NCBI GenBank assembly: GCA_964459225.1
Contig: CAYWKB010000001.1
Location: 32,356 to 96,355 of the forward strand
Direction of reading: 5' to 3'
Source: an uncultured Candidatus Saccharibacteria bacterium
GTDB taxonomy: Bacteria; Patescibacteriota; Minisyncoccia; Phycocordibacterales; PALSA-1337
DNA: 64,000 nt
Shown here: one piece after another, positions 1 to 64,000 of the stretch
How positions within the stretch are numbered: the stretch's first letter is position 1
Layout of the letters: each line of letters opens with the position of its first letter
Program-made: the position numbers and the translations under genes
The notes under the pieces: generated by a model
What the model was told of the DNA's origin: nothing
The model's input: the letters and a program-made list of their open reading frames with translations, nothing else
Databases searched by the model: none

Positions 1-251
1 CAATTAGCACCTGAAGTATCTAATGTAGCTGGATAACTATTACATCTATCAAAATATAATTCTAAGGTTAATTGTAATTGTCCGATATCAGAAATCCTTT
101 TTGCATCTCTCGCTTTTATTTTAGATGATGCTAGATTAGCTGAAACTATTGCTGTTAGTATTCCTATAATTGCTATTACCACTAGTAACTCTATTAATGT
201 GAATGCTTTATTTTTAATTGATTTATTATTTTTCAAAAGTTCTTTTTTCAT
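1..251 (-). CDS. type IV pilin/pseudopilin, N-terminal part (runs off window edge); MKKELLKNNKSIKNKAFTLIELLVVIAIIGIL...
   Basis: Reverse-strand translation from ATG (rc of 249-251) gives classic prepilin leader + FTLIELLVVIAIIGIL N-methylation/TM segment; same 16-aa motif as pilin at 53000-53473. Confidence 0.75.
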   Translation of the reverse strand, partial: MKKELLKNNKSIKNKAFTLIELLVVIAIIGILTAIVSANLASSKIKARDAKRISDIGQLQLTLELYFDRCNSYPATLDTSGAN

Positions 252-288
252 TACTGTAATTATATCAAGGAAGCACATATAAACAAAA

Positions 289-327
289 CACCCCGGGGTC
301 GTCACTTCTGTGACTTACCCCGGGGTG
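289..327 (-). terminator. GC-rich hairpin (CACCCCGGGG...CCCCGGGGTG, 10-bp stem) followed on minus strand by T-run; terminator of small GC-rich cassette
   Basis: perfect inverted repeat read directly; A-run on plus strand upstream = U-run on minus strand. Confidence 0.6.
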
Positions 328-355
328 CATAATGACTGGCGTCAATTGCGTCAGG

Positions 356-487
356 AAACTTTTCTACCAGCGAGAATTTTCTCGCTAGCTGCTTTCTGCC
401 GCGCGGCATGTTCCTCCTGCAGCTTCTTGACCTCCTCGTAGCTGATTTCGACTCTCTTGCCATTGAGTATTCTGTATAACTTGGCCA
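356..487 (-). CDS. small hypothetical protein (44 aa, MAKLYRILNGKRVEISYEEVKKLQEEHAARQKAASEKILAGRKVS) in GC-rich cassette
   Basis: clean charged/helical 44-aa ORF, ATG start, TGA stop, ~52% GC vs ~30% genome; not in ORF track (below 60 aa). Confidence 0.4.
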
Positions 488-621
488 TAACCTATTAATT
501 TACCGACCTTGAGTCTAATTGGAATGTGCTTGTGGATGCGGTCCCCAAGAATCGCATCGCCATCCCAATGGATGGACCATGTAGACCTTTTTGGTAAACA
601 CAGTAACATCTGGACAATCAT
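385..621 (-). CDS. hypothetical small ORF (first ORF of GC-rich cassette); true 3' end uncertain, overlaps next ORF out of frame, possible frameshift/pseudogene
   Basis: ORF track 78 aa; ATG at 619-621 lies ~10 nt downstream of a consensus promoter; C-terminal part is low-complexity and overlaps the 44-aa ORF. Confidence 0.3.
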   Translation of the reverse strand: MIVQMLLCLPKRSTWSIHWDGDAILGDRIHKHIPIRLKVGKLIGYGQVIQNTQWQESRNQLRGGQEAAGGTCRAAESS

Positions 622-628
622 TATAGCA

Positions 629-657
629 CCATATATTTACGTGTCAAGCAAATATAA
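629..657 (-). promoter_or_regulatory. consensus sigma70-type promoter TTGACA-16nt-TATAAT on minus strand, start codon ~10 nt after -10 (leaderless-type)
   Basis: rc of 652-657 = TTGACA, rc of 629-634 = TATAAT, 16-nt spacer; sits exactly at AT-rich/GC-rich boundary. Confidence 0.55.
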
Positions 658-671
658 CTATATGTGGAAAA

Positions 672-1823
672 CTAATTTGCACTTGTACTAGTAGCTGTGA
701 GCAATGAACTTCTTGTATAGTTATTTGAAGCATTCCACATCATCCAACTATTTAGTCCTGTATCATATGTCGCAGTGATTTGTGCTCTAACCATTTCGGG
801 GGTATAGTCCACTCTTCCAATACTAAAATCTTGTAACCATGGTCTTAATTTACTTGGAGTTGTGCTCGCAGTTACCGCTCTCTTTACTGCCATACCCATA
901 GCATATTTAATCACTTCATATGGTTTACTTGCGGGACTTTCAAAATTCATAAAACCAGTTGGATAATGTGATGGATAAACCATAGGAGCAACATAATCAA
1001 AATGTTCAAGTGCGTATTCTAATATTTGCCCTATTCCTAAATCATCAGTATTAGATGTTGTCATACCAAACAAGTCAGCTGATATTGGAATATTTTTGGC
1101 TTTGAATTCTTTTTCTAAAAATGCAAAAAATTCTTTTAATGCTATTGATTTTACTTTTCCTTCACTAAAAGGATACGAAATATCCATCATATCTCCATCT
1201 GACGGAAATCTTATATAATCAAAATTCAATTCGTCAAAACCAACCGCGTATGATTCATTACCTATTTCAACAATATAATCCCATACAGGTTTTGCCCCCA
1301 CATCTAACCAACTAACTCCCTTTCGATCTTTCCATACATTTCCATTTTTGAACTTTACGGCGTATTCTGGTTTTTTATGAACTAAATATGAATCCTGAAA
1401 TGATGATATTCTCCCAATTACATATATTCCCTTATCATGTAGGCTACCTATAAATTGTTTAATATCCGGAATTCTGTTTTCCTCTGAACCCAAATCACTA
1501 ATTAATTTATTTTCTGAATGAAATGAAACCCGACCTGTATAATCTTTAATATCTATAACCACTGCATTTAATTCAGTATCATCAATCAGCTTTACAAGAT
1601 TATCTCTTAATCTTTTATTACCCGCCACCCAACTAGACATATAAATAGCCTTCACTGAATCTGGTGTTTTGATATGAGTAACTGAAAATGGAGGTGGTAA
1701 AGATATACTGATAGCAGCATTTTGTTCAGCTTTGTATATATCACTTTCAAAAGGGAATTTTTGTATTCCGACAACTGTCGCAATTAACAATGATATTCCT
1801 ATTGTGTAAGCGATATATCTCAT
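672..1823 (-). CDS. putative glycoside-hydrolase-like TIM-barrel protein (DUF4015/COG1306-like), N-terminal membrane anchor
   Basis: 383 aa; motifs DYIRFPSDG, FDELNFDY typical of DUF4015 family; N-terminal hydrophobic segment. Confidence 0.5.
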   Translation of the reverse strand: MRYIAYTIGISLLIATVVGIQKFPFESDIYKAEQNAAISISLPPPFSVTHIKTPDSVKAIYMSSWVAGNKRLRDNLVKLIDDTELNAVVIDIKDYTGRVSFHSENKLISDLGSEENRIPDIKQFIGSLHDKGIYVIGRISSFQDSYLVHKKPEYAVKFKNGNVWKDRKGVSWLDVGAKPVWDYIVEIGNESYAVGFDELNFDYIRFPSDGDMMDISYPFSEGKVKSIALKEFFAFLEKEFKAKNIPISADLFGMTTSNTDDLGIGQILEYALEHFDYVAPMVYPSHYPTGFMNFESPASKPYEVIKYAMGMAVKRAVTASTTPSKLRPWLQDFSIGRVDYTPEMVRAQITATYDTGLNSWMMWNASNNYTRSSLLTATSTSAN

Positions 1824-16703: not shown

Positions 16704-16705
16704 TG

Positions 16706-16778
16706 TGCGCGTGCTAGGATTCGAACCTAGGACCCCACCAGTATCAGTGGTGTGCTCTACCAACTGAGCTACACGCGC
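16706..16778 (-). tRNA. tRNA-Ile (anticodon GAT)
   Basis: GCGCGTG acceptor, GCTCAGTTGGTAGAGC D-arm, anticodon loop CTGATAC, GGTTCGAATCC T-arm; no encoded CCA. Confidence 0.85.
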
Positions 16779-18669: not shown

Positions 18670-20289
18670 AATTGAAATAATCCACGAGCAGCTTCCGCTA
18701 CCCGTGCCTTGTTACGACTTACTCCCTGTCATTGAGCTTACCTTAGGCCACGACAAGCGTAGACTTCGGGTATTCCCAACTCCCTTGAGTTGACGGGCGG
18801 TGAGTACAAGACTTGAGAACGTATTCACCGCAGTATAGCTGACCTGCGATTACTAGCAATTCCAACTTCATGAGGTCGAGTTGCAGACCTCAATCCGAAC
18901 TGGGGATAGCTTTATAAGGATTTGCTCCATCTTTCGACTTTGCGTCCTGTTGTACTATCCATTGTATCACGTGTGTAGCCCAGGGTATAAGGGACATGCT
19001 GACCTGGCGTCATCCTCACCTTCCTCCCACGACGCAGCAAACAATTTTACAGAGGTTAGGAAAAATTGGTTCACATCACTTGCGTGCGTAGTAACTTTTT
19101 ATATCTCTTACGAGCTATAAAAAGTTCTCCGCACCGGATGTTCACTCAATTTTTCATCATCTCAACAAAATTCCGCACTGTGTCGTGGGCAGTCTCGCCT
19201 GACAAATATAACAGACAACGAGGGTTGCGTTCGTTACCCCACTGAAGGGAACAACTCAAGCCACGAACTGACGACGGCCATGCATCACCTGACTAACTGT
19301 CTTGCGACGCCAAAAGTTTCTTCTTGGCTTCAGCTAGATTAAACCCTGGTAAGGTTCTTCGTTTATCATCGAATTAAACCACATGATCCACTGCTTGTGC
19401 AAGTCCCCGTCTATTCCTTTGAGTTTTAACCTTGCGGTCGTACTACCCAGGCGCTTCTCTTAACGCGTTAGCTACGCCACTCAGAGGGTCGATACTCCGA
19501 ATAGCTAGAGAAGATCGTTTAGGGCGTGGACTACTGGGGTATCTAATCCCATTCGCGACCCACGCTTTCTTGTTTCAGTGTCAGGAGTGCTCTAGTCTGC
19601 TGCCTTCGCTTTTGGTGTTCCCCATAATATCAACGCATTTTACCGCTACACTATGAGTTCCGCAGACCTCTCGCATCCTCTAGTCATACCGTTTCCCTTG
19701 CATGCCCCCGGTTAAGCCGAAGAATTTAACAAGAGACTAATATAACCACCTACACAACCTTTACGCCCAATGATTCCGGATAACGCTTGAGGCACTCGTA
19801 TTACCGCTGCTGCTGGCACGAGTTTAGCAACCTCTTATTCGCCAAGTACTATCAATAAACTTTCTCCCTGGCAAAAGAACTTTACATGCCTAAGCACTTC
19901 ATCGTTCACGCGGCGTCGCTCCGTCAGACTTTCGTCCATTGCGGAAGATTCTCGACTGCGGCCACCCGTAGGTGTATGGACCGTGTCTCAGTTCCATCGG
20001 TGGGGGTCACCCTCTCAGGTCCCCTAGGCGTCATAGCCTTGGTGAGCTTTTACCTCACCAACTAGCTGATACCGAGCAGGCTCATCTTGAAGCGATAAAT
20101 CTTTAGTCTTTCGACACCATCAAGTATTAACTCATCTTTCGATGAGGTATTCCTGACTTCAAGGTTGATACCTACTTATTACTACCTCGTCTGCCACTGA
20201 CTATATATTGCTATACAGCCCGTTTGACTTGCATGCCTTATCCACGCCGCCAGCGTTCATCCTGAGCTAGGATCAAACTCTTAACTAAA
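18670..20289 (-). rRNA. rrs: 16S rRNA (about 1620 nt) with ~140-nt AT-rich expansion in helix 40 (plus coords ~19030-19175) and non-canonical 3' tail lacking CCUCC
   Basis: rc matches AGAGTTTGATCCTAGCTCAG (20262-20281), GTATTACCGCTGCTGCTGGCAC, GGACTACTGGGGTATCTAATCC, ACGGGCGGTGAGTACAAG, CCTTGTTACGACTT; flanking leader/trailer complementarity (18481-18507 vs 20290-20330). Confidence 0.9.
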
Positions 20290-28291: not shown

Positions 28292-29116
28292 ATGAGAGTC
28301 CTAATGTTCATTGTCATGGTGGTGGCGGTCGCAACAATAAACTGCACTGCGGATCCAATAGTACGAGCACCTCGCGTGAGTGAGAAGCTCAAAGAGAAAA
28401 TAGACTACTACAAAAAGGTAGCCGAGGGTCAAAAATACCCGAATCATTTTGTATCAGTCGAGGGGCAGTGGTCAAATGAGTACTCGTCTGCTCAAGAACT
28501 GCCAGACTACTTCGTAGTCAAAGCATCTAATCGTGATGGGGGGCGAATCCTAAAAATGTCCCCCATCGGGACGGTATTTGGCGGAATGTCAGTACCACCA
28601 GTATTCACGGATGTGCTAACTGGAGAAGTGTTTTTTCCTTCACTCCAGACACAAGATGTCCGCAATGGTCCATATGACTATACAAGTACCGACGGAAGAC
28701 TACTGGAAAACTATTTCCAGTACGGATCATTGGTGATCCATGGTGATGTTTACAATATTGTCATCGCCTATGCAGACACACCCCGCTATCCCACAGTCTC
28801 AATGACATGGGGAGCCGAATCAGATCTAATGCATGCCGGAACAATAATTGATACATTCGATGATGTCTCAGTTGAGGATCCGGCAACAGAAACAGAGGTC
28901 TGGTTGCATAATTCAAAAGGAGAAGTTGGTCTATCGGATGGGTTATATCTGTTGGTCTCATCACCAAAAGAAGTAGCACAACTACGAATTGAAACATCAA
29001 CCGATTTAAAAAGTTGGCGAGAAATGACAGTACAACCATATTATATATTTGGTGATGTTATTGTCTACCAAATCCCTTCGGCTAATCTAGGATTCTTTAG
29101 AGCAAAAGAGCTCTGA
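28292..29116 (+). CDS. secreted hypothetical protein, GC-rich (~47%) relative to genome
   Basis: signal peptide MRVLMFIVMVVAVATINCTADP; composition anomaly. Confidence 0.45.
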   Translation: MRVLMFIVMVVAVATINCTADPIVRAPRVSEKLKEKIDYYKKVAEGQKYPNHFVSVEGQWSNEYSSAQELPDYFVVKASNRDGGRILKMSPIGTVFGGMSVPPVFTDVLTGEVFFPSLQTQDVRNGPYDYTSTDGRLLENYFQYGSLVIHGDVYNIVIAYADTPRYPTVSMTWGAESDLMHAGTIIDTFDDVSVEDPATETEVWLHNSKGEVGLSDGLYLLVSSPKEVAQLRIETSTDLKSWREMTVQPYYIFGDVIVYQIPSANLGFFRAKEL

Positions 29117-30206: not shown

Positions 30207-30321
30207 CTTTGTACTGGCGACTAGCTACTTTCCCCTTCATATGAGTATCATCGCCGCAACTGCGTTTCACTTCCGTGTTCGGAATGGGAACGGGTGTTTC
30301 CACAGCGCCAAATCACCAGAA
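30207..30321 (-). rRNA. rrf: 5S rRNA
   Basis: rc contains GCGTTTCACTTCCGTGTTCGGAATGGGAACGGGTGTTTCC matching conserved 5S core. Confidence 0.8.
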
Positions 30322-30720
30322 CAAAAAATTCAATCTGTTGATAAAAATTCAGATAAACAAAAGCTTATCGAATTTTAATAAATAAAGGTTTGTGCTTGTT
30401 ATAGACAAGTAATTGTGGTTCTTAAATTTCCTAATAGGATCGACGGATTAGTACTTCTCAGCTTAACATATTACTATGCGTACACCTAAAGCCTATCAAC
30501 GTAATCATCTCTTACGGGTCTCAAACGATTCCTAATCTTGGGGTTGGCTTCCTTCTTAGATGCTTTCAGAAGTTATCCATTCCGAACATAGCTACACTGC
30601 GATGCTCTTGGCAGAACAGCAGTCACACCAGAGGTTCGTTCAATTTGGTCCTCTCGTACTAAAATCAAATCCCCTCAAGAATCAACGCCTGCAGTAGATA
30701 GGAGACCAACCTGTCTCACG

Positions 30721-31276
30721 CTTGTTATCATAGATTACTCTATGCAATGGACTATAGCTTCACCTTCTTACGAAGGTTGTTAACGTTTAGTCTCTACGGG
30801 TGTTTATGAGTTTTGAAGAGAAGGCGAGACACAAGTTCCTGAGCTTTCGCCCCTCGTCCCCTAGGGGACTCTTAGGCGTGATTCCTTCGGATACGCCTAG
30901 CAATACATGTGCCTCACCAAAATTTGAGAACAAAAATTCTCTACAAAACTCACAAACTTCCCTCGGTATTATCCCTTTTTCATGGACTTCCACCGATTTT
31001 AGTTAACTTGATCTTTCTTATATTACTATAAGTGACCGCCGTGTTTGATTGATCTACTTCCTATACTTTTATTTTGTATAAATGTTACTTTATACTTTTC
31101 TTAAACGAAAAACTCGAAGTGATTCAGACTGTTCAATTGTTATAATTGCTTTACAAAATTATATTTCTCAAAATACTCGCATACTTTTCTGCTGAAAAGT
31201 TGCTCTTCTCGGCGCCAAGCGCCTGCGAAAGGTATTTTTCGAAACAAATTTTGCTCCGCTTAGTCATCACAACTAA
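30721..31276 (-). ncRNA. group I-like intron in 23S at E. coli position ~2593 (between ...AGACCGU and CGUGAGACAG), ~556 nt, no convincing homing-endonuclease ORF
   Basis: exon sequences contiguous in E. coli are split here; 5' exon ends in U, insertion ends in G; internal GCGG can pair with exon CCGU (P1 with U.G); known hotspot for group I introns. Confidence 0.55.
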
Positions 31277-31942
31277 ACGGTCTGAACCCAGCTCGCGTAA
31301 CTTTTTAATTGGCGAACAGCCAAACCCTTGGAAGCTTCTCCACCTCCAGGATAAGTTGAGCCGACATCGAGGTGCCGAACTGCGCCGTCGCTATGAACGC
31401 TTAGGCGCAACCAGCCTGTTATCCCTAGAGTAGCTTTTGGTCCGATAATCTTCCCCCGCGTCTAATGCGTAAGGTCGGTTCACTATGTTCTGCTTTCGCA
31501 TCTGTTCGACAAGTACGTCTTACAGTCAAGCCAGCTTATGCCATTACACTATCGGCACGGTTTCCATTCGCGCCTAGCTGACCTTAATAAACTCCTCCGT
31601 TACTTTTTAGGAGGATAGCGCCCCACTAAAACTGCCCGCCAGATTCTGTCTCTTGCCGTTTTTGCCGTCAAGGTTAGAATATATATTTTTTAAGAATGGT
31701 ATTTCACTGTCGGATCCATCTTCCCCGAAAGAAAAACTTCAAATCCTCCCATCTACGCTACGCATAAAAAACATATAGTCAAAATCAAGTTGCAGTAAAG
31801 CTTCTAGGGTCTTTTCGTCTAACTGCAGGTAATCGGCATCTTCACCGATATTGTATTTTCACCGAGCAAGTCTCCGAGACAGTTCTCCAGACATTACACT
31901 ATTCGTGCGCGTCAGAACTTACCTGACAAGGAATTTCGCTCT

Positions 31943-32194
<252 letters not shown>

Positions 32195-32997
32195 CAGGGC
32201 TTACAACAGTCAGCTTGATATAATCGCACCGCCGTTGTTTGACCTTCTGGCATTGGTCAAGTGTCACCCCCTATACATCCTCTTACGAGTTCGCAGGGAG
32301 CTGTGTTTTTGATAAACAGTTGCCAGAGATACTTTAGCTGCGGCCCTTCTTGCGAAGGGCAAGCCTTATTCCGAAGTTACGGCTGATTTTTTGCCGAGTT
32401 CCTTGGAGACCTCTCACTCGTTCGCCTTGGTCTACTCGACCTGAACACCTGTGTCGGTTTGCGGTACGGTTCCTGCATAGATAAGTTTAGAAGATTTTCT
32501 TGGAAGCGCGCTTTATAACATCTAAAAGGGCGAACCCCTCTATTTTCACTCTACTCGGAATTGTCATCAAAGACATTACCCGGATTTTCCTGGGTAAATT
32601 CCCTATAGCATGAACTCAAATCCAATAATGAGCGTCATATACTGCACTCCGTCCCTTCATCACTCTATACAAAAGTCATGGAATATTAACCATGTGTCCA
32701 TCGGGTGCGGTTTTCACCATCCCCTTAGGCCCGACTAACCCTTGGCTGATTTACATAGCCAAGGAAACCTTGTTCTTTCGGCGTGCCGGATTCTCACCGG
32801 CATTGTGGTTACTTGTGCCAACATTCTTACTTCCAAACGCTCCAGCATGGCTCACGCCTTTGCCTTCAACGCAGATTGGAATACTCTCCTACCACTGTAT
32901 ATTATCGAAATAAAATACAATCCTCAGTTTCGGTATCATGTTTAACCCCGATTATCTGCGGCGCAGAATCTCTCGATGAGTGAGCTGTTACGCTTTC

Positions 32998-33029
<32 letters not shown>

Positions 33030-33602
33030 TCATTGTTTGAGAAATTCAACCACCTTAAGCGTACTTAACATGAATTTAGGGACCTTAAATGGAGATCTAG
33101 GCTGTTTCCTTTTTGACGTATGGAGCTTAGCCCCCACCGTCTAACTGCTGAATAATTTAACCTCTGTATTCGGAGTTTGATAGGTCTCGTGATCTTTCGA
33201 CCTGTCGAGACCTTCCAGTGCTCTACCCCAGAGGGGTACATTCAACGCTAGCCCAAAAGCTATTTCGGAGAGAACCAGCTATTACCAGATTCGATTAGCT
33301 TATCACTCCTTACCTCAAGTCATCGCAGAGAATTGCACAACTCTAGCGTTCGGACCTCCCTTTCCACTTCTGAAAAGTTCATCCTGCTCAAGGCAAGCTC
33401 ATCTGGCTTCGGGTCTGATGCATACTACGAACGCGCTATTCACACTCGGTTTCCCTGTGGCTCCAGTCTCTCGACCTTAGCCTGCAGCATGCTTCAACTC
33501 GTTGGCTCATTCTTCAATAGGCACGCAGTCGAGGTATTGCTACCTCTTCTACTCCTTGTAAATATATGGTTTCAGGTCTATTTCATCGCCCTTACCGGGC
33601 TG

Positions 33603-33642
<40 letters not shown>

Positions 33643-34545
33643 TTCTAGAATATTTAGCCTTACCGGTTAGTTCCGGCAGATTCCCCCGAGCTATTCGTGT
33701 CTCGAGGTACTCAAGAATAGGAACAAAAAAGATCTTTTGATTTCGACTACAGGGCTATCACCTTCTGGGGCTAAGCTTTCCAGCTTATTCTTCTATCAAA
33801 AAATTTTGTAACTTTTCTGTTATAAATAACACGTTCCTACCTTACTACCCCCAACCTTTATCGCACGATAGGACATGAGAGACATTGCTGTCCCCCAAAA
33901 TTCCTATAGCACGATAAAGGTTGAGTTTGGGCTCTTCCGCTTTCGCTCGCCGCTACTTACGAAATTCTTATTTAGTCTCTATTCCTCCAGGTACTGAAAT
34001 GTTTTACTTCCCTGGGTGCGCATTCAAATATCAAGTACTTGAATTCTGACTCGAGGTCAGAGGGTTTCCCCATTCGGAGTCTTCCGGATCAAAGGTTGCT
34101 AGGCACCTCCCCGGAAAATATCGTCGCCATGCCACGTCCTTCATCGCTTCTTAGAAGCCTAGGCATCCACCATATACTCTTAAATTTCCCATTAGGAAAT
34201 CTAAAAACCACAATTATTTGTCTACAACTTACAACATACTATTTAATGTATATATTCGAAAAAACCCTAACATATATACATCTTATAGTATTACCTTTAT
34301 TTATCACTCAGTAACTTCCTGATTGTTGAAATTACTGAGTTATTTAATTGTCAATGTTTCTGTCATTATGTTATTGAATTTTTCATTTCAATTTTACAAA
34401 AAAATCGCTTTATTAAGCGACCTTTCCTAACACCGTTTTAAAGCGTTATTATGGCCGTTTAAATAGTGAAGTTTTTAACATATTTCTGTGTAAGGGATAG
34501 TGTATACGAAGGTGAAATTAAAGTCAATAGCGATACATAAAATAG

Positions 34546-61443: not shown

Positions 61444-61711
61444 CCTTTTTCTTATTCCAAATATCTACCACAAAATACAAATATATAAGCTCAAGAATTC
61501 CCATAGTATTTATTAGAAGTAGTGCAATAAACCATCCCTTTTCATTTCTTTTTGCTGCATGCCATAATGCATAACCCTTAAGTATAATAGACGCAATAGT
61601 TAATAAGAAAAATAGAAAAGCTCCTAATGCAAATAGACCAAAACCCATACCAAGCATTGGTAATCCAAAACCAAATTCATGAGCACCAGCAATAAAATTA
61701 TTTGTCATCAT
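61427..61711 (-). CDS. small membrane protein, hypothetical
   Basis: 94 aa, 2-3 TM. Confidence 0.35.
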   Translation of the reverse strand: MMTNNFIAGAHEFGFGLPMLGMGFGLFALGAFLFFLLTIASIILKGYALWHAAKRNEKGWFIALLLINTMGILELIYLYFVVDIWNKKKVNEPK

Positions 61712-61754
61712 ATTTAACTATTATATCACAAATTAACATTACCCATCACAGACC

Positions 61755-61787
61755 AAACAAAAGACTAAAACAATCTAGTCTTTTGTT
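61755..61787. terminator. 13-bp-stem hairpin AAACAAAAGACTA-aaacaatc-TAGTCTTTTGTTT at AT-rich/GC-rich boundary
   Basis: read directly. Confidence 0.5.
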
Positions 61788-61940
61788 TTGTTGCGGGCAT
61801 CGTGGGTTCAGTACCAAAGCAGTGAGACACCGTAAGGGTATTTTAGCAGACTTTTGGAGGTTGAAATGAGGTATGTGGGTCGGGGTCTGCTTTACAGATT
61901 TTGACAAGTTAAAAGCCTAGCTCACGGATCGAACGTGATA

Positions 61941-62342
61941 CTAGGCTTTTTCAAACATCCAGCCGAGTCGTGTACCGAAGTTCTCCCTTACCGAGAGTTC
62001 GTCGAGACGATCCTTGAAGCTGAAAGTCCTTTCGCGCGGAATGTAGTCGCGGTTCATCCCGCTGATGCACATCACTCGAGATTGCAGAGGGCCGAGTCTT
62101 TCGAAGACATCGTGACCATTGAGACATTTGCAGCGACCTGTAGTGAACCGGCAATCGCAGAAGTCGTGGTCAAGCAGGATAAGGACAGGATCAACTTCCA
62201 GAATCTGCCTTACGATTTCATCAGCAGAAGTATCCCATTTCGGAGTGATCGTCAGGACAACTTCGAATCCGTTCTTCTGACAGGCATCCGCGAGTGGTTT
62301 TTGATATCTGATTACATCTTCGATAAGAACTGTTTTTTGCAC
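61941..62342 (-). CDS. hypothetical protein, possibly receiver-domain-like with Cys-rich insert (CDCRFTTGRCKC); GTG start preceded by perfect SD AAGGAGGTG; GC ~52%
   Basis: 133-aa ORF; rc upstream = ctgAAAGGAGGTGtctcGTG; hairpin terminator AAGCCTAG...CTAGGCTT overlaps stop (61911-61951). Confidence 0.5.
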   Translation of the reverse strand: MQKTVLIEDVIRYQKPLADACQKNGFEVVLTITPKWDTSADEIVRQILEVDPVLILLDHDFCDCRFTTGRCKCLNGHDVFERLGPLQSRVMCISGMNRDYIPRERTFSFKDRLDELSVRENFGTRLGWMFEKA

Positions 62343-62423
62343 GAGACACCTCCTTTCAGGGTTTTATTGGGTTTGAGTTCTAGTTGAATAGTAACACGTA
62401 TTTATAGTTTCGTAAAGCTTCGG

Positions 62424-62460
62424 TGCCTAGGTACTTGGGTCGCCCCACATACCTAGGCAC
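62424..62460. promoter_or_regulatory. inverted repeat GTGCCTAGGTA-N15-TACCTAGGCAC between island ORF and tRNA-Ser (operator/att-like)
   Basis: perfect 11-bp arms read directly. Confidence 0.35.
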
Positions 62461-62487
62461 TCGGGTCACTCCGATACTTTATTCTCT

Positions 62488-62577
62488 TGGCGGAAAGAGC
62501 GAGATTCGAACTCGCGGTTCCGATGAAGGAACGGCGGTTTAGTAAACCGCTGGTTTAAACCACTCACCCATCTTTCC
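62488..62577 (-). tRNA. type II tRNA, Ser identity (long variable arm, G73 discriminator, CCA encoded) with anticodon loop UUACUAA -> anticodon ACU (A34)
   Basis: GGAAAGA/TCTTTCC acceptor, 3-bp D stem, GCGGT-TTACTAA-ACCGC anticodon arm, GTTCC/GGAAC variable arm, GCGAG-TTCGAAT-CTCGC T-arm. Confidence 0.7.
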
Positions 62578-62638
62578 ATACCTTCATATACTATACAAAA
62601 TTAAGATCTTTTACAAACTCACATGATATAATATCGAA

Positions 62639-64000
62639 ATGAAAGAAAAGTTGATTTCTCTTAAACAAATATTTAATGGCGACATAGATACAAGCGAAGG
62701 CACATTACTCGAATATTCTCATGATGCAAGTCTATTTGAAATTAAACCAAAAGTAGTTGTATTTCCGAAAGACAGTAGCGATATCAAAAATCTAGTCAAA
62801 TGGGTAAATGAAAATAACAGCAAAGACAATCCCCTATCCATAACCGCAAGATGTGCAGGGACATGCATGACTGGTGGATCAATTGGTAATTCAATAATTG
62901 TTGATTTTACTAGGTATATGAATAATATTATTGAAATAAAAGATGACTATGCAATAGCCATGCCCGGTTGCTTGTATAGAGATTTTGATATTGAAACTAA
63001 AAAGCATGGTAAATACATGCCAGCATACACAGCATCGAGAGATATAAATGCAATAGGCGGAATGGTGGGCAATAATAGTGGTGGCGAAAAATCTATTAAA
63101 TACGGTAAAACAGAAAATTATATTAATTCATTAAAAGTAGTTTTGAGTGATGCGAATGAATATGAAATTAAACCTTTAAGTCTTAGTGAATTAGAAGAAA
63201 AAATAAAATCAGATAATTTTGAATCTTCAATTTACAAAAAGATTTTTGAATTAATTCAAAATAATTATGATGCGATAATGTCAGCAAAACCAAATGTATC
63301 CAAAAACTCTGCTGGATATTATCTTTGGAATATTTATGACAAAGAAAATAATAAATTTGATTTATGTAAATTGATTGTTGGCTCACAGGGAACATTAGGT
63401 ATTGTTACTGAAATAAATTTCAAAATTATCCCCTTTGAAGCATGTTCAAATATTATGGCTGTCTTTTTGCCTTCAATTGATCATGTTAGTAAACTTGTAA
63501 ATGAAATACTTCCCTATAAACCAGACAGTCTCGAAACATATGATGACAAGAGTATGATACTGGCAGTTAAATTTTTCTATGATTTTATTGAGTATTTAGG
63601 TATTTGGGGAGCAATTAAATTAGGTTTTCAATTTATTCCAGAAACTTACATGCTCGCAATCGGTGGCGTTCCAAAATTAATTTTAATGATTGAATTTACA
63701 GGCAATACAGAATCAGAAGTTAAAAATAAATTAATACAAGTAGAAAAGCATATAAAACCTTTTGGTTTCCATACTCATATAGCCCATTCAAGTGCGGAAG
63801 CAAATAAATACTGGAAAATACGCCATGAAAGTTTTAATTTATTGAGGAAGCATAGTAATGGAAAAAGAACAGCCCCATTTATTGATGACATAATAGTTAA
63901 ACCAGAATATTTACCAAAATTCCTTCCACAAATCAAAAAACTATTAGATGAATACAAATTAGATTATACGGTACAGGGGCATTTGGGTAACGGTAACTTT
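62639..64000 (+). CDS. FAD-binding oxidoreductase (FAD_binding_4/GlcD-D-lactate dehydrogenase-like), 5' part; continues beyond window
   Basis: VVVFPKDSSDIKNLVKWVNEN...ITARCAGTCMTGGSI FAD-binding motif; extended -10 TGaTATAAT ends 6 nt before ATG; absent from ORF track because it runs off the edge. Confidence 0.65.
   Translation, partial: MKEKLISLKQIFNGDIDTSEGTLLEYSHDASLFEIKPKVVVFPKDSSDIKNLVKWVNENNSKDNPLSITARCAGTCMTGGSIGNSIIVDFTRYMNNIIEIKDDYAIAMPGCLYRDFDIETKKHGKYMPAYTASRDINAIGGMVGNNSGGEKSIKYGKTENYINSLKVVLSDANEYEIKPLSLSELEEKIKSDNFESSIYKKIFELIQNNYDAIMSAKPNVSKNSAGYYLWNIYDKENNKFDLCKLIVGSQGTLGIVTEINFKIIPFEACSNIMAVFLPSIDHVSKLVNEILPYKPDSLETYDDKSMILAVKFFYDFIEYLGIWGAIKLGFQFIPETYMLAIGGVPKLILMIEFTGNTESEVKNKLIQVEKHIKPFGFHTHIAHSSAEANKYWKIRHESFNLLRKHSNGKRTAPFIDDIIVKPEYLPKFLPQIKKLLDEYKLDYTVQGHLGNGNF

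Follow-up and report, generated by a model that had tools for sequence, protein, structure and literature searches.

The window analyzed here, a 64,000-nucleotide (nt) stretch of contig CAYWKB010000001.1 from an uncultured Candidatus Saccharibacteria bacterium, carries near its start a compact unit of about 360 bp, set between a gene for a DUF4015 protein and a type IV pilin gene. The unit is probably an ordinary monocistronic gene for a small protein, provided with a structured leader and belonging to a fast-evolving family that is restricted to one clade. In the mechanism that we propose, transcription from a near-perfect sigma-70-type promoter would yield an RNA of about 333 nt (613..281 on the minus strand). 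The 5' part of this transcript would form a stem-loop opening with YCCRGAUG and then a second hairpin, which together would make up a structured leader of 125 nt. An A/U-rich start region free of a Shine-Dalgarno sequence (context GUUAUGGC) and a 45-codon open reading frame (ORF) would follow. A very stable terminator would end the transcript and at the same time insulate the promoter of the putatively leaderless pilin gene just downstream. The product would be a small charged protein, predicted to consist of a beta-hairpin and, after it, one long helix. Inheritance is vertical within the window's clade, where the gene keeps its place 3' of the DUF4015 gene. We infer that the unit is highly expressed. 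The 5' stem-loop probably serves as an mRNA stabilizer or as the binding site of a regulator, possibly the 45-amino-acid (aa) protein itself. The protein in turn is probably a small factor that uses its hairpin for binding or for adaptor functions.

The transcription unit and its small-protein gene

All coordinates are positions in the window, and the unit is read on the minus strand. Its parts are as follows.

620..647, minus: sigma-70-type promoter with a -35 box TTGACA (647..642), a 16-nt spacer, and an extended -10 box TGc-TATAAT (628..620); it matches the consensus at 12 of 12 positions and has the TG in addition
571..613, minus: predicted transcript start (about 613), 5' motif YCCRGAUG, and 5'-terminal hairpin (HP1; 610..571), recognized from the conserved motif and from folds
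518..569, minus: second hairpin (HP2) of the 5' untranslated region (UTR), with UGGGG in the apical loop; -20.8 kcal/mol, z = -3.3
489..517, minus: A/U-rich linker and start context GUUAUGGC, with an in-frame UAG two codons before the AUG
351..488, minus: gene for the 45-aa protein MAKLYRILNGKRVEISYEEVKKLQEEHAARQKAASEKILAGRKVS, stop codon included, recognized from positional orthologues and the pattern of substitution
366..389, minus: hairpin in the 3' part of the ORF (CUAGCGAGAA-AAUU-CUCGCUGG); the segment 400..351 folds at -17.8 kcal/mol, z = -2.8
281..327, minus: intrinsic terminator with a 12-bp G/C-rich stem and an inner 5-bp stem (327..289), then UUUUGUUU (288..281), recognized from the fold and the U-tract
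385..621, minus: spurious 78-aa ORF, chosen by the public gene call, with its ATG in the -10 box and a frame that is not conserved

The comparison on which much of the following depends used the neighboring DUF4015 protein as an anchor for fetching orthologous loci from GTDB genomes and public assemblies. L001 designates the locus on the window's own contig, and L024 is the closest relative, with a DUF4015 protein 80% identical to that of the window. The same architecture is found directly 3' of the DUF4015 stop codon in at least 14 related Paceibacteria genomes (L003-L009, L016, L024-L026, L028-L035), at a distance of about 5 to 50 nt. In the window the stop codon lies 24 nt ahead of the -35 box. 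In order, these loci share a TTGAC promoter with YCCRGATG immediately behind its -10 box, then a hairpin and a small ORF, and finally a G/C-rich hairpin followed by a T-run; either a pilin operon or a gene of the TraG/VirD4 type lies downstream. Wherever a related locus has the unit, the DUF4015 gene precedes it. The more distant loci L012, L013, L015, and L020 are without it.

The initial annotation of this stretch had described a textbook TTGACA-16-TATAAT promoter on the minus strand and a GC-rich hairpin terminator. Both are present, the former with its extended -10 box and the latter with the compound stem and U-tract listed above. By consensus scan, the promoter is the sole 12/12 match in the first 3 kb of the window, where the total number of promoter-like sites (17) is not enriched over that expected from shuffles (16.9). 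The promoter of L024 is nearly identical to it. The pattern TTGAC-N13-GTRSTA-N3-T-N3-T-N-YCCRGATG is kept in L003, L004, L005, L007, and L016, and its 3' section, which begins with the -10 box and runs through YCCRGATG, also in L024, L025, and L028-L033. The terminator hairpin (-34.1 kcal/mol, z = -6.2) has no second copy in the window and was missed by a simple terminator scan solely because its compound loop exceeds the loop limit of the scan. A G/C-rich hairpin with a T-run stands at the equivalent place in every related locus, typically as CCCC...GGGGAUU(C)UUUUUAUAU. The transcript start at about 613 was placed by its spacing from the -10 box, and the predicted transcript as a whole has a minimum free energy (MFE) well below that of shuffles (z = -4.8). 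Consensus hexamers at a spacing of 16 to 18 nt and a G/C hairpin with a U-tract, both kept in relatives, mark an autonomous transcription unit. Thus, the self-contained promoter-to-terminator unit of the initial annotation stands, while its two-gene micro-operon is reduced to a single conserved gene.

What argues that the 45-aa ORF is a real gene? Positional orthologues occur in L024, L025, L028, L030, L033, and L035; the peptide reads MAKYYKTIGEKRVEITLEEVKKIQ... in L024 and MARFYFTDSDGTRTQITKEDAAKI... in L025, and at corresponding positions L024 encodes MAKYYKTIGEKRVEITLEEVKKIQSEYRARVAQ... and the window MAKLYRILNGKRVEISYEEVKKLQEEHAARQK.... A tblastx comparison of the window with L024 gives an expectation value (E) of 6e-10 in frame +1/+1. 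Over the first 32 codons, the proportion of synonymous differences from L024 (pS) is 0.92, which is saturated, versus a proportion of nonsynonymous differences (pN) of 0.30. No such asymmetry is found in the remaining two frames, which in L024 are interrupted by stops. In the first eight loci, the frame from the conserved AUG is open to 6 to 35 nt before the terminator without exception (8/8), at a joint chance of about 10^-12.5. Profiles built with some members left out also recover the others. Against a profile of L028, L030, and L033, the peptides of L001 and L025 beat all or all but one of 500 shuffles; against a profile of L001, L024, and L025, that of L030 beats all 500; and overall the cross-validated family profiles place distant members at 0 to 18 of 500 shuffles. 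Position and frame are therefore conserved together with an excess of synonymous change, as in a protein-coding gene, and within the window's clade the class of ORF follows the DUF4015 tree. The initial annotation had allowed for the case that neither of its ORFs would be conserved in any relative; the 45-aa ORF is. The clean 44-aa charged helical peptide reported there has a genuine, conserved coding sequence, and its length is 45 aa with the initial Met.

The family can be summarized by the pattern MAK-x-h-Y-x(3-5)-G-[KET]-R-x-x-I-[STD]-x-x-E, followed by a helix and then a Gly-rich tail. An AlphaFold2 model made from the single sequence, with a predicted local distance difference test score (pLDDT) of 84, places strands at residues 4-8 and 11-15 in a beta-hairpin and a helix at residues 17-41. 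A search of this model with Foldseek against the PDB found nothing significant (best E, 2.6). The family profile against the PDB gave marginal matches to PA2021 (1ywy; E = 0.05) and to a YgdR-like protein (2rd1; E = 0.31). These proteins, the YgdI/YgdR-type lipoproteins and PA2021, carry the hairpin-helix motif Y-x-D-x-x-G-x-x-x-x-I-x-x-x-D/E-V-x-x-I, and the core of the family profile, AklYvtdadGkRheIddeevkkI, aligns to ARLSVLYIDGKRLHISEEDAQRL; the AlphaFold2 model is likewise a hairpin followed by a helix. Unlike YgdI/YgdR (DUF903) and PA2021, the 45-aa protein has no Pfam match and neither a signal peptide nor a lipobox, so this is a resemblance and not membership. The initial annotation had also found no family that it could name for either peptide and had proposed a search with hidden Markov models in all frames. 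Such a search, run against Pfam, PHROGs, PADLOC, and NCBIfam, returned no credible match for any of seven frames on both strands or for any family member. A clade-specific small-protein family is thereby defined, with a recognizable motif and a conserved structured leader, and it could be traced in metatranscriptomes and metaproteomes of Paceibacteria.

The leader is conserved in a different manner from the protein. The YCCRGAUG motif is found in most related loci, with one copy in the window and one per locus. HP1 is a two-tier hairpin beginning 3 to 6 nt into the predicted transcript, and all 12 loci that were folded independently form it (z, -1.1 to -5.5). Its basal stem, GAUGA...UCAUC, is conserved, while the sequence of the inner stem is unrelated from locus to locus. 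RNAalifold found no structure on a MAFFT alignment of HP1, in which the inner stems cannot be aligned, and a column-wise count for L001 and L024 makes HP1 look broken, an effect of the shifted stem register alone; independent folds were used instead. HP2 occurs in the window as well as in L024 and L025. Relative to the window, the L024 hairpin has one change that is compensatory (G-C to U-A), three wobble-preserving ones, and a single broken pair, and L025 keeps the outer stem with different bases. Such an arrangement recalls the 5'-terminal stem-loops that stabilize mRNAs or bind proteins, as in the E. coli ompA 5' UTR and the leaders of ribosomal-protein operons. As in ompA-type leaders, a hairpin lies a few nucleotides from the (predicted) 5' end, with a conserved basal sequence and a variable inner stem; unlike these and the ribosomal-protein leaders, the window's leader matches no known leader family, and its start is a predicted one.

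Translation would begin in the start context GTTATGGC(A/C)AA, which recurs in L001, L006, L008, L009, L024, and L025. No Shine-Dalgarno sequence precedes the 45-aa ORF. The 3' end of the window's 16S rRNA (18670-18700, minus strand) reads ...GUGGAUUAUUUCAAUU, and it has no CCUCC where E. coli has GGAUCACCUCCUUA, nor in the next 100 nt. The two observations fit together, and the same holds for the other genes examined, before which Shine-Dalgarno sequences are missing as well.

The other of the two small overlapping ORFs in the initial annotation, the 78-aa one, fares differently. Both frames are present (621..385 and 488..351), but this one is spurious. Its ATG (621..619) overlaps the -10 hexamer and so lies upstream of any transcript from that promoter, and the next in-frame ATG (609..607) lies about 4 nt into the predicted transcript. 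In L024 the frame runs for 31 sense codons before it meets a stop, and in L025 for a single one (AUG UAA); it overlies the two 5'-UTR hairpins and has no Pfam match. Among the loci, the upstream ORFs opened by the conserved AUG run from 1 to 74 codons and share no conserved sequence. The 78-aa frame is thus 5' UTR and not a frameshifted gene, as had been considered. Public gene calls list the 78-aa ORF in L001 and L002, whereas for L024 and L025 the callers chose the correct short ORF. The call that took the spurious ORF and missed the real 45-aa gene can now be corrected; it is a typical small-protein failure in genomes of candidate phyla.

A separate observation concerns the AUG within the conserved YCCRGAUG (window 607-609), which in most loci is placed about 4 nt from the predicted 5' end. 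Given the apparent leaderless starts, it could open an upstream ORF of 1 to 74 codons, which in L025 shrinks to a start codon followed at once by a stop (AUG UAA). Conservation of the bases that follow this AUG (AUGNNNNUGUG) may reflect either a peptide or an RNA.

GC content and ORF turnover in a sister clade

The initial annotation reported a jump in guanine-plus-cytosine (GC) content over about 360 bp between the pilin and DUF4015 genes, and the jump, to about 0.5, is real. In 100-nt windows, GC is 0.46 to 0.52 across 251-450 and 0.41 to 0.48 up to 650, versus 0.23 to 0.33 in the flanks and 0.333 in the window as a whole. The unit is among the strongest GC islands of the 64 kb, after the rRNA genes. 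Where does the GC reside? The 5' UTR has 0.45 (HP2, 0.52), the ORF 0.49, and the terminator stem-loop 0.67. By codon position, the ORF has GC1 0.52, GC2 0.35, and GC3 (third positions) 0.59, versus a GC3 of 0.21 in the DUF4015 gene. The jump is mixed in origin, from a structured leader, a terminator, and a GC3-rich ORF. The hairpin inside the ORF probably contributes both to its high GC and to the weak conservation of the C-terminal half of the protein; hairpins of other sequence stand at the equivalent place in L024 (GCGCAGCUUGC-ACA-GCAAGCUGCGC) and in L025. An unannotated structured RNA had been named as one possible cause of the jump. This holds for about half of the island, the leader and the terminator, and fails for the ORF, which is conserved as a protein.

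A local rise in GC accompanies each related locus. A GC island at a locus conserved among relatives is no mark of recent import, and the foreign composition proposed in the initial annotation does not hold: the same GC-rich unit lies at the same place in at least 14 related genomes, and its ORF tracks the DUF4015 tree. More generally, a GC island in a very AT-rich genome need not signify foreign DNA; here it reflects RNA structure and a locus-specific codon bias.

The sister clade presents a different picture. The DUF4015 proteins of L004 and L005 are 91% identical, their flanking genes are 83 to 85% identical in DNA (63% at third positions), and the promoter-leader and post-stop segments are 75 to 81% identical. 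Their small ORFs (L004, 5245-5460; L005, 2006-2242) are 41% identical versus 43% for shuffles, and no frame reveals a similarity. A homologue of the L004 ORF is found instead in the more distant L016 (5269-5538; E = 5e-6), in disagreement with the DUF4015 tree. A profile of the window type scores no sister-clade ORF above shuffles. By eye, the ORFs of L003, L005, and L007 had suggested a hairpin-helix likeness and thus one family for all of the small ORFs; this was rejected, as the profile scores are no better than those of shuffles. The GC3 of the sister-clade ORFs is 0.51 to 0.68, versus 0.24 to 0.33 in neighboring genes. Scaffold gaps of 100 N lie inside the cassette in two independent metagenome-assembled genomes (MAGs), at L008 5290-5389 and L025 3291-3390, the latter flanked by a duplicated 55-nt end, which suggests that assemblies break at this locus. 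Together, these data, from few genomes, suggest allele replacement or very fast turnover within a fixed expression frame. It is doubtful, though worth stating, that the locus is a conserved high-expression slot in a clade of Paceibacteria, with at least three mutually dissimilar ORF classes, a GC3 about twice that of the genome, and an ORF that is replaced or hyper-diversified. If so, it would be a compact replacement locus without a recombinase, perhaps for conflict with phages, hosts, or competitors, or alternatively a dual-function RNA whose coding part turns over freely. This turnover in a fixed expression frame is the only part of the locus of possible specialist interest beyond routine annotation.

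Competing explanations for the unit

The initial annotation proposed a toxin-antitoxin pair, or an addiction or selfish module of another kind; could the unit be one that was gained by horizontal transfer? A compact, self-contained unit of atypical GC with two overlapping small ORFs would suit such a module, and the genome is not devoid of toxin-antitoxin genes, since the contig also has a YafQ-type toxin gene some 5 kb past the DUF4015 gene. Type I and type II systems are also alike in their small size, strong promoters, and, for type I toxin mRNAs, structured transcripts. We nevertheless regard this explanation as very improbable. Of the two ORFs only one is conserved, the other being 5' UTR, and there is no conserved partner gene, so that the two co-conserved genes of a type II system are missing. 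No known toxin or antitoxin family was matched either; the Pfam, PADLOC, PHROGs, and NCBIfam searches described above were negative throughout. The small, hydrophobic, membrane-active peptide of a type I system is missing as well, as the peptide here is charged and soluble, has no hydrophobic segment, and is modeled as a hairpin with an amphipathic or charged helix. A consensus scan found no convergent antisense promoter in the unit, that is, no plus-strand promoter-like site within 281-660, although weak promoters and the diversity of promoters in this organism are outside the reach of the scan. Nor does the unit spread as toxin-antitoxin modules or mobile cassettes do. The initial annotation had asked whether it recurs; it is present once in the 64 kb and once per related locus, always 3' of DUF4015, and its syntenic position is fixed in at least 14 genomes. 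Within the window there are no recombinase genes, attC-like sites, repeats, or second copy with which it could be associated. Searches with blastn and tblastn against phages and plasmids found nothing except one chance match of 33 nt. The promoter-leader pattern had no match in viral contigs, and its only matches in a metagenome collection were a chance one (L022) and a further copy of the L007 species (L023). Like a moron, the unit has a consensus promoter and an intrinsic terminator to itself, holds one short ORF, and differs from its flanks in GC content. Morons are defined in prophages and occur sporadically, however, while this unit is chromosomal, lies between housekeeping-type genes at a position fixed across the clade, and has no phage relatives. 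A diversity-generating retroelement was likewise rejected, as the 64-kb window holds no repeat of the cassette able to serve as a template.

Two further explanations give more weight to the parts around the ORF than to the ORF itself. One holds that the unit is primarily a structured regulatory RNA, a small RNA (sRNA) or dual-function RNA, in which function resides in the hairpins and terminator, with the short ORF of secondary importance or no more than a by-product. The stability of the whole transcript (z = -4.8) speaks for it, as do the formation of HP1 in 12/12 loci with unrelated inner stems, the pairs of HP2 kept through compensatory and wobble changes, and the hairpin of differing sequence that L001, L024, and L025 each have at an equivalent point of the ORF. 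In addition, the promoter, the 5' motif, and the terminator are far better conserved than the body of the ORF, and in the sister clade L004 and L005 keep the RNA ends around unrelated ORF bodies. The known dual-function sRNAs that encode small proteins, SgrS/SgrT, RNAIII/hld, and SR1/SR1P, are similar in having a structured transcript (about 330 nt here), a strong promoter and terminator, and a short conserved ORF; they are unlike it in that no target-pairing region was identified in the window's unit, where protein-level constraint is better supported than an RNA-only element. The substitutions are of the protein type (pS 0.92 versus pN 0.30, with stops in the other frames), the frame from AUG to near the terminator is open in 8/8 loci, and HP2 and the internal hairpin rest on three close sequences with thin covariation. 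Rfam 15 had no match at its gathering thresholds for the unit or in 15 related loci, and when the cutoff was relaxed to E values of up to 10 it gave only chance-level ones, the best at 21.6 bits versus a threshold of 105. We therefore consider a primarily regulatory RNA unlikely. RNase P RNA, tmRNA, 6S RNA, and the signal recognition particle (SRP) RNA, which came into consideration by size and GC, were rejected on empty results at the site from Rfam, gathering and relaxed, and from ARAGORN, with the evidence for the ORF opposing them too. The other explanation, which we think quite unlikely, sees a replaceable accessory-gene slot, with a fixed promoter, leader, and terminator around a coding payload that is swapped by recombination or hyper-diversifies, the 45-aa ORF being one class of allele. 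It draws on the sister clade: the L004 and L005 ORFs that are no more alike than shuffles despite similar flanks, the match of L004 to L016 against the DUF4015 tree, the class-C profile that scores other ORFs no higher than shuffles, the high GC3 relative to neighbors, and the 100-N gaps in two MAGs, as expected if population variants break assemblies. Set against these are the vertical, alignable ORF of the window's clade and the want of recombinase genes, attC-like sites, repeats, a second copy, and phage or plasmid relatives already described. Moreover, the turnover is seen in one close pair only (L004/L005), and the gaps may be artefacts of MAG assembly.

An ordinary small-protein gene with a structured leader thus remains the preferred explanation, and several observations weigh against it. 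(i) The ORF that occupies the same frame in the sister clade is unrelated between close genomes, unlike an ordinary housekeeping small gene. (ii) Homology beyond L024 is weak: L024 itself reaches only 18/500 shuffles in the profile test, and L028 scores no better than shuffles against profiles of L001 and L024, with or without L025. (iii) A word-index search of 5.8 billion clustered proteins found no homologue of the 45-aa peptide, and phmmer against 1.84 billion representatives gave 0 matches, although a query this short has little power in either search. (iv) The poorly conserved C-terminal half overlaps an RNA hairpin that is conserved in position, and part of the constraint on this half may act on the RNA. 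(v) The GC3 of the nearest orthologues is only 0.37 and 0.30, which leaves the 0.59 of the window's ORF not fully explained. (vi) The transcript start, its abundance, and the protein are predictions from sequence.

Neighboring genes and other features of the window

The unit is flanked by two genes, both on the minus strand.

672..1823, minus: upstream neighbor, the DUF4015 (putative glycoside hydrolase) gene, with PF13200 recorded for its product
1..264, minus: downstream neighbor, the type IV pilin gene, with its ATG at 251; it runs off the start of the window, and the full gene in L001 has PF07963 (N_methyl)

The pilin gene has a TATAAT (264..259) 7 nt before its ATG, and this TATAAT-N7-ATG arrangement is kept in L003, L004, L005, and L024. 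A spacing this short points to an mRNA that is probably leaderless. The -35 region of the pilin promoter overlaps the T-tract of the cassette terminator. The YafQ-type toxin gene (PF15738) is located at L001 1-192, window position about 6.8-7.0 kb, and is unrelated to the cassette.

Credible Rfam matches in the window are to rRNA and tRNA genes only, with none at the unit. The rRNA genes are unlinked, in that the 23S and 5S genes (30212-34196, minus) lie about 10 kb from the 16S gene (18670-20288, minus), which is followed by a tRNA-Ile at 16705-16778. The 23S gene is 3769 nt long versus 2925 nt in the model, which indicates insertions.

Two further GC-rich islands are found in the window, at 28292-29116 (plus strand; GC up to 0.49) and at 61935-62387 (both strands; up to 0.535). 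The first contains a long ORF of 274 aa and the second contains ORFs of 133 and 150 aa on opposite strands, with no credible Pfam match for any of these; in 61600-62700, Rfam matched nothing but a tRNA. The second island abuts a tRNA-Ser gene (62488-62577, minus), a typical integration site. This tRNA gene is 90 nt long and scores 56 bits as an Rfam tRNA, and ARAGORN assigns it the unusual anticodon ACT, where GCU would be expected for AGY codons.

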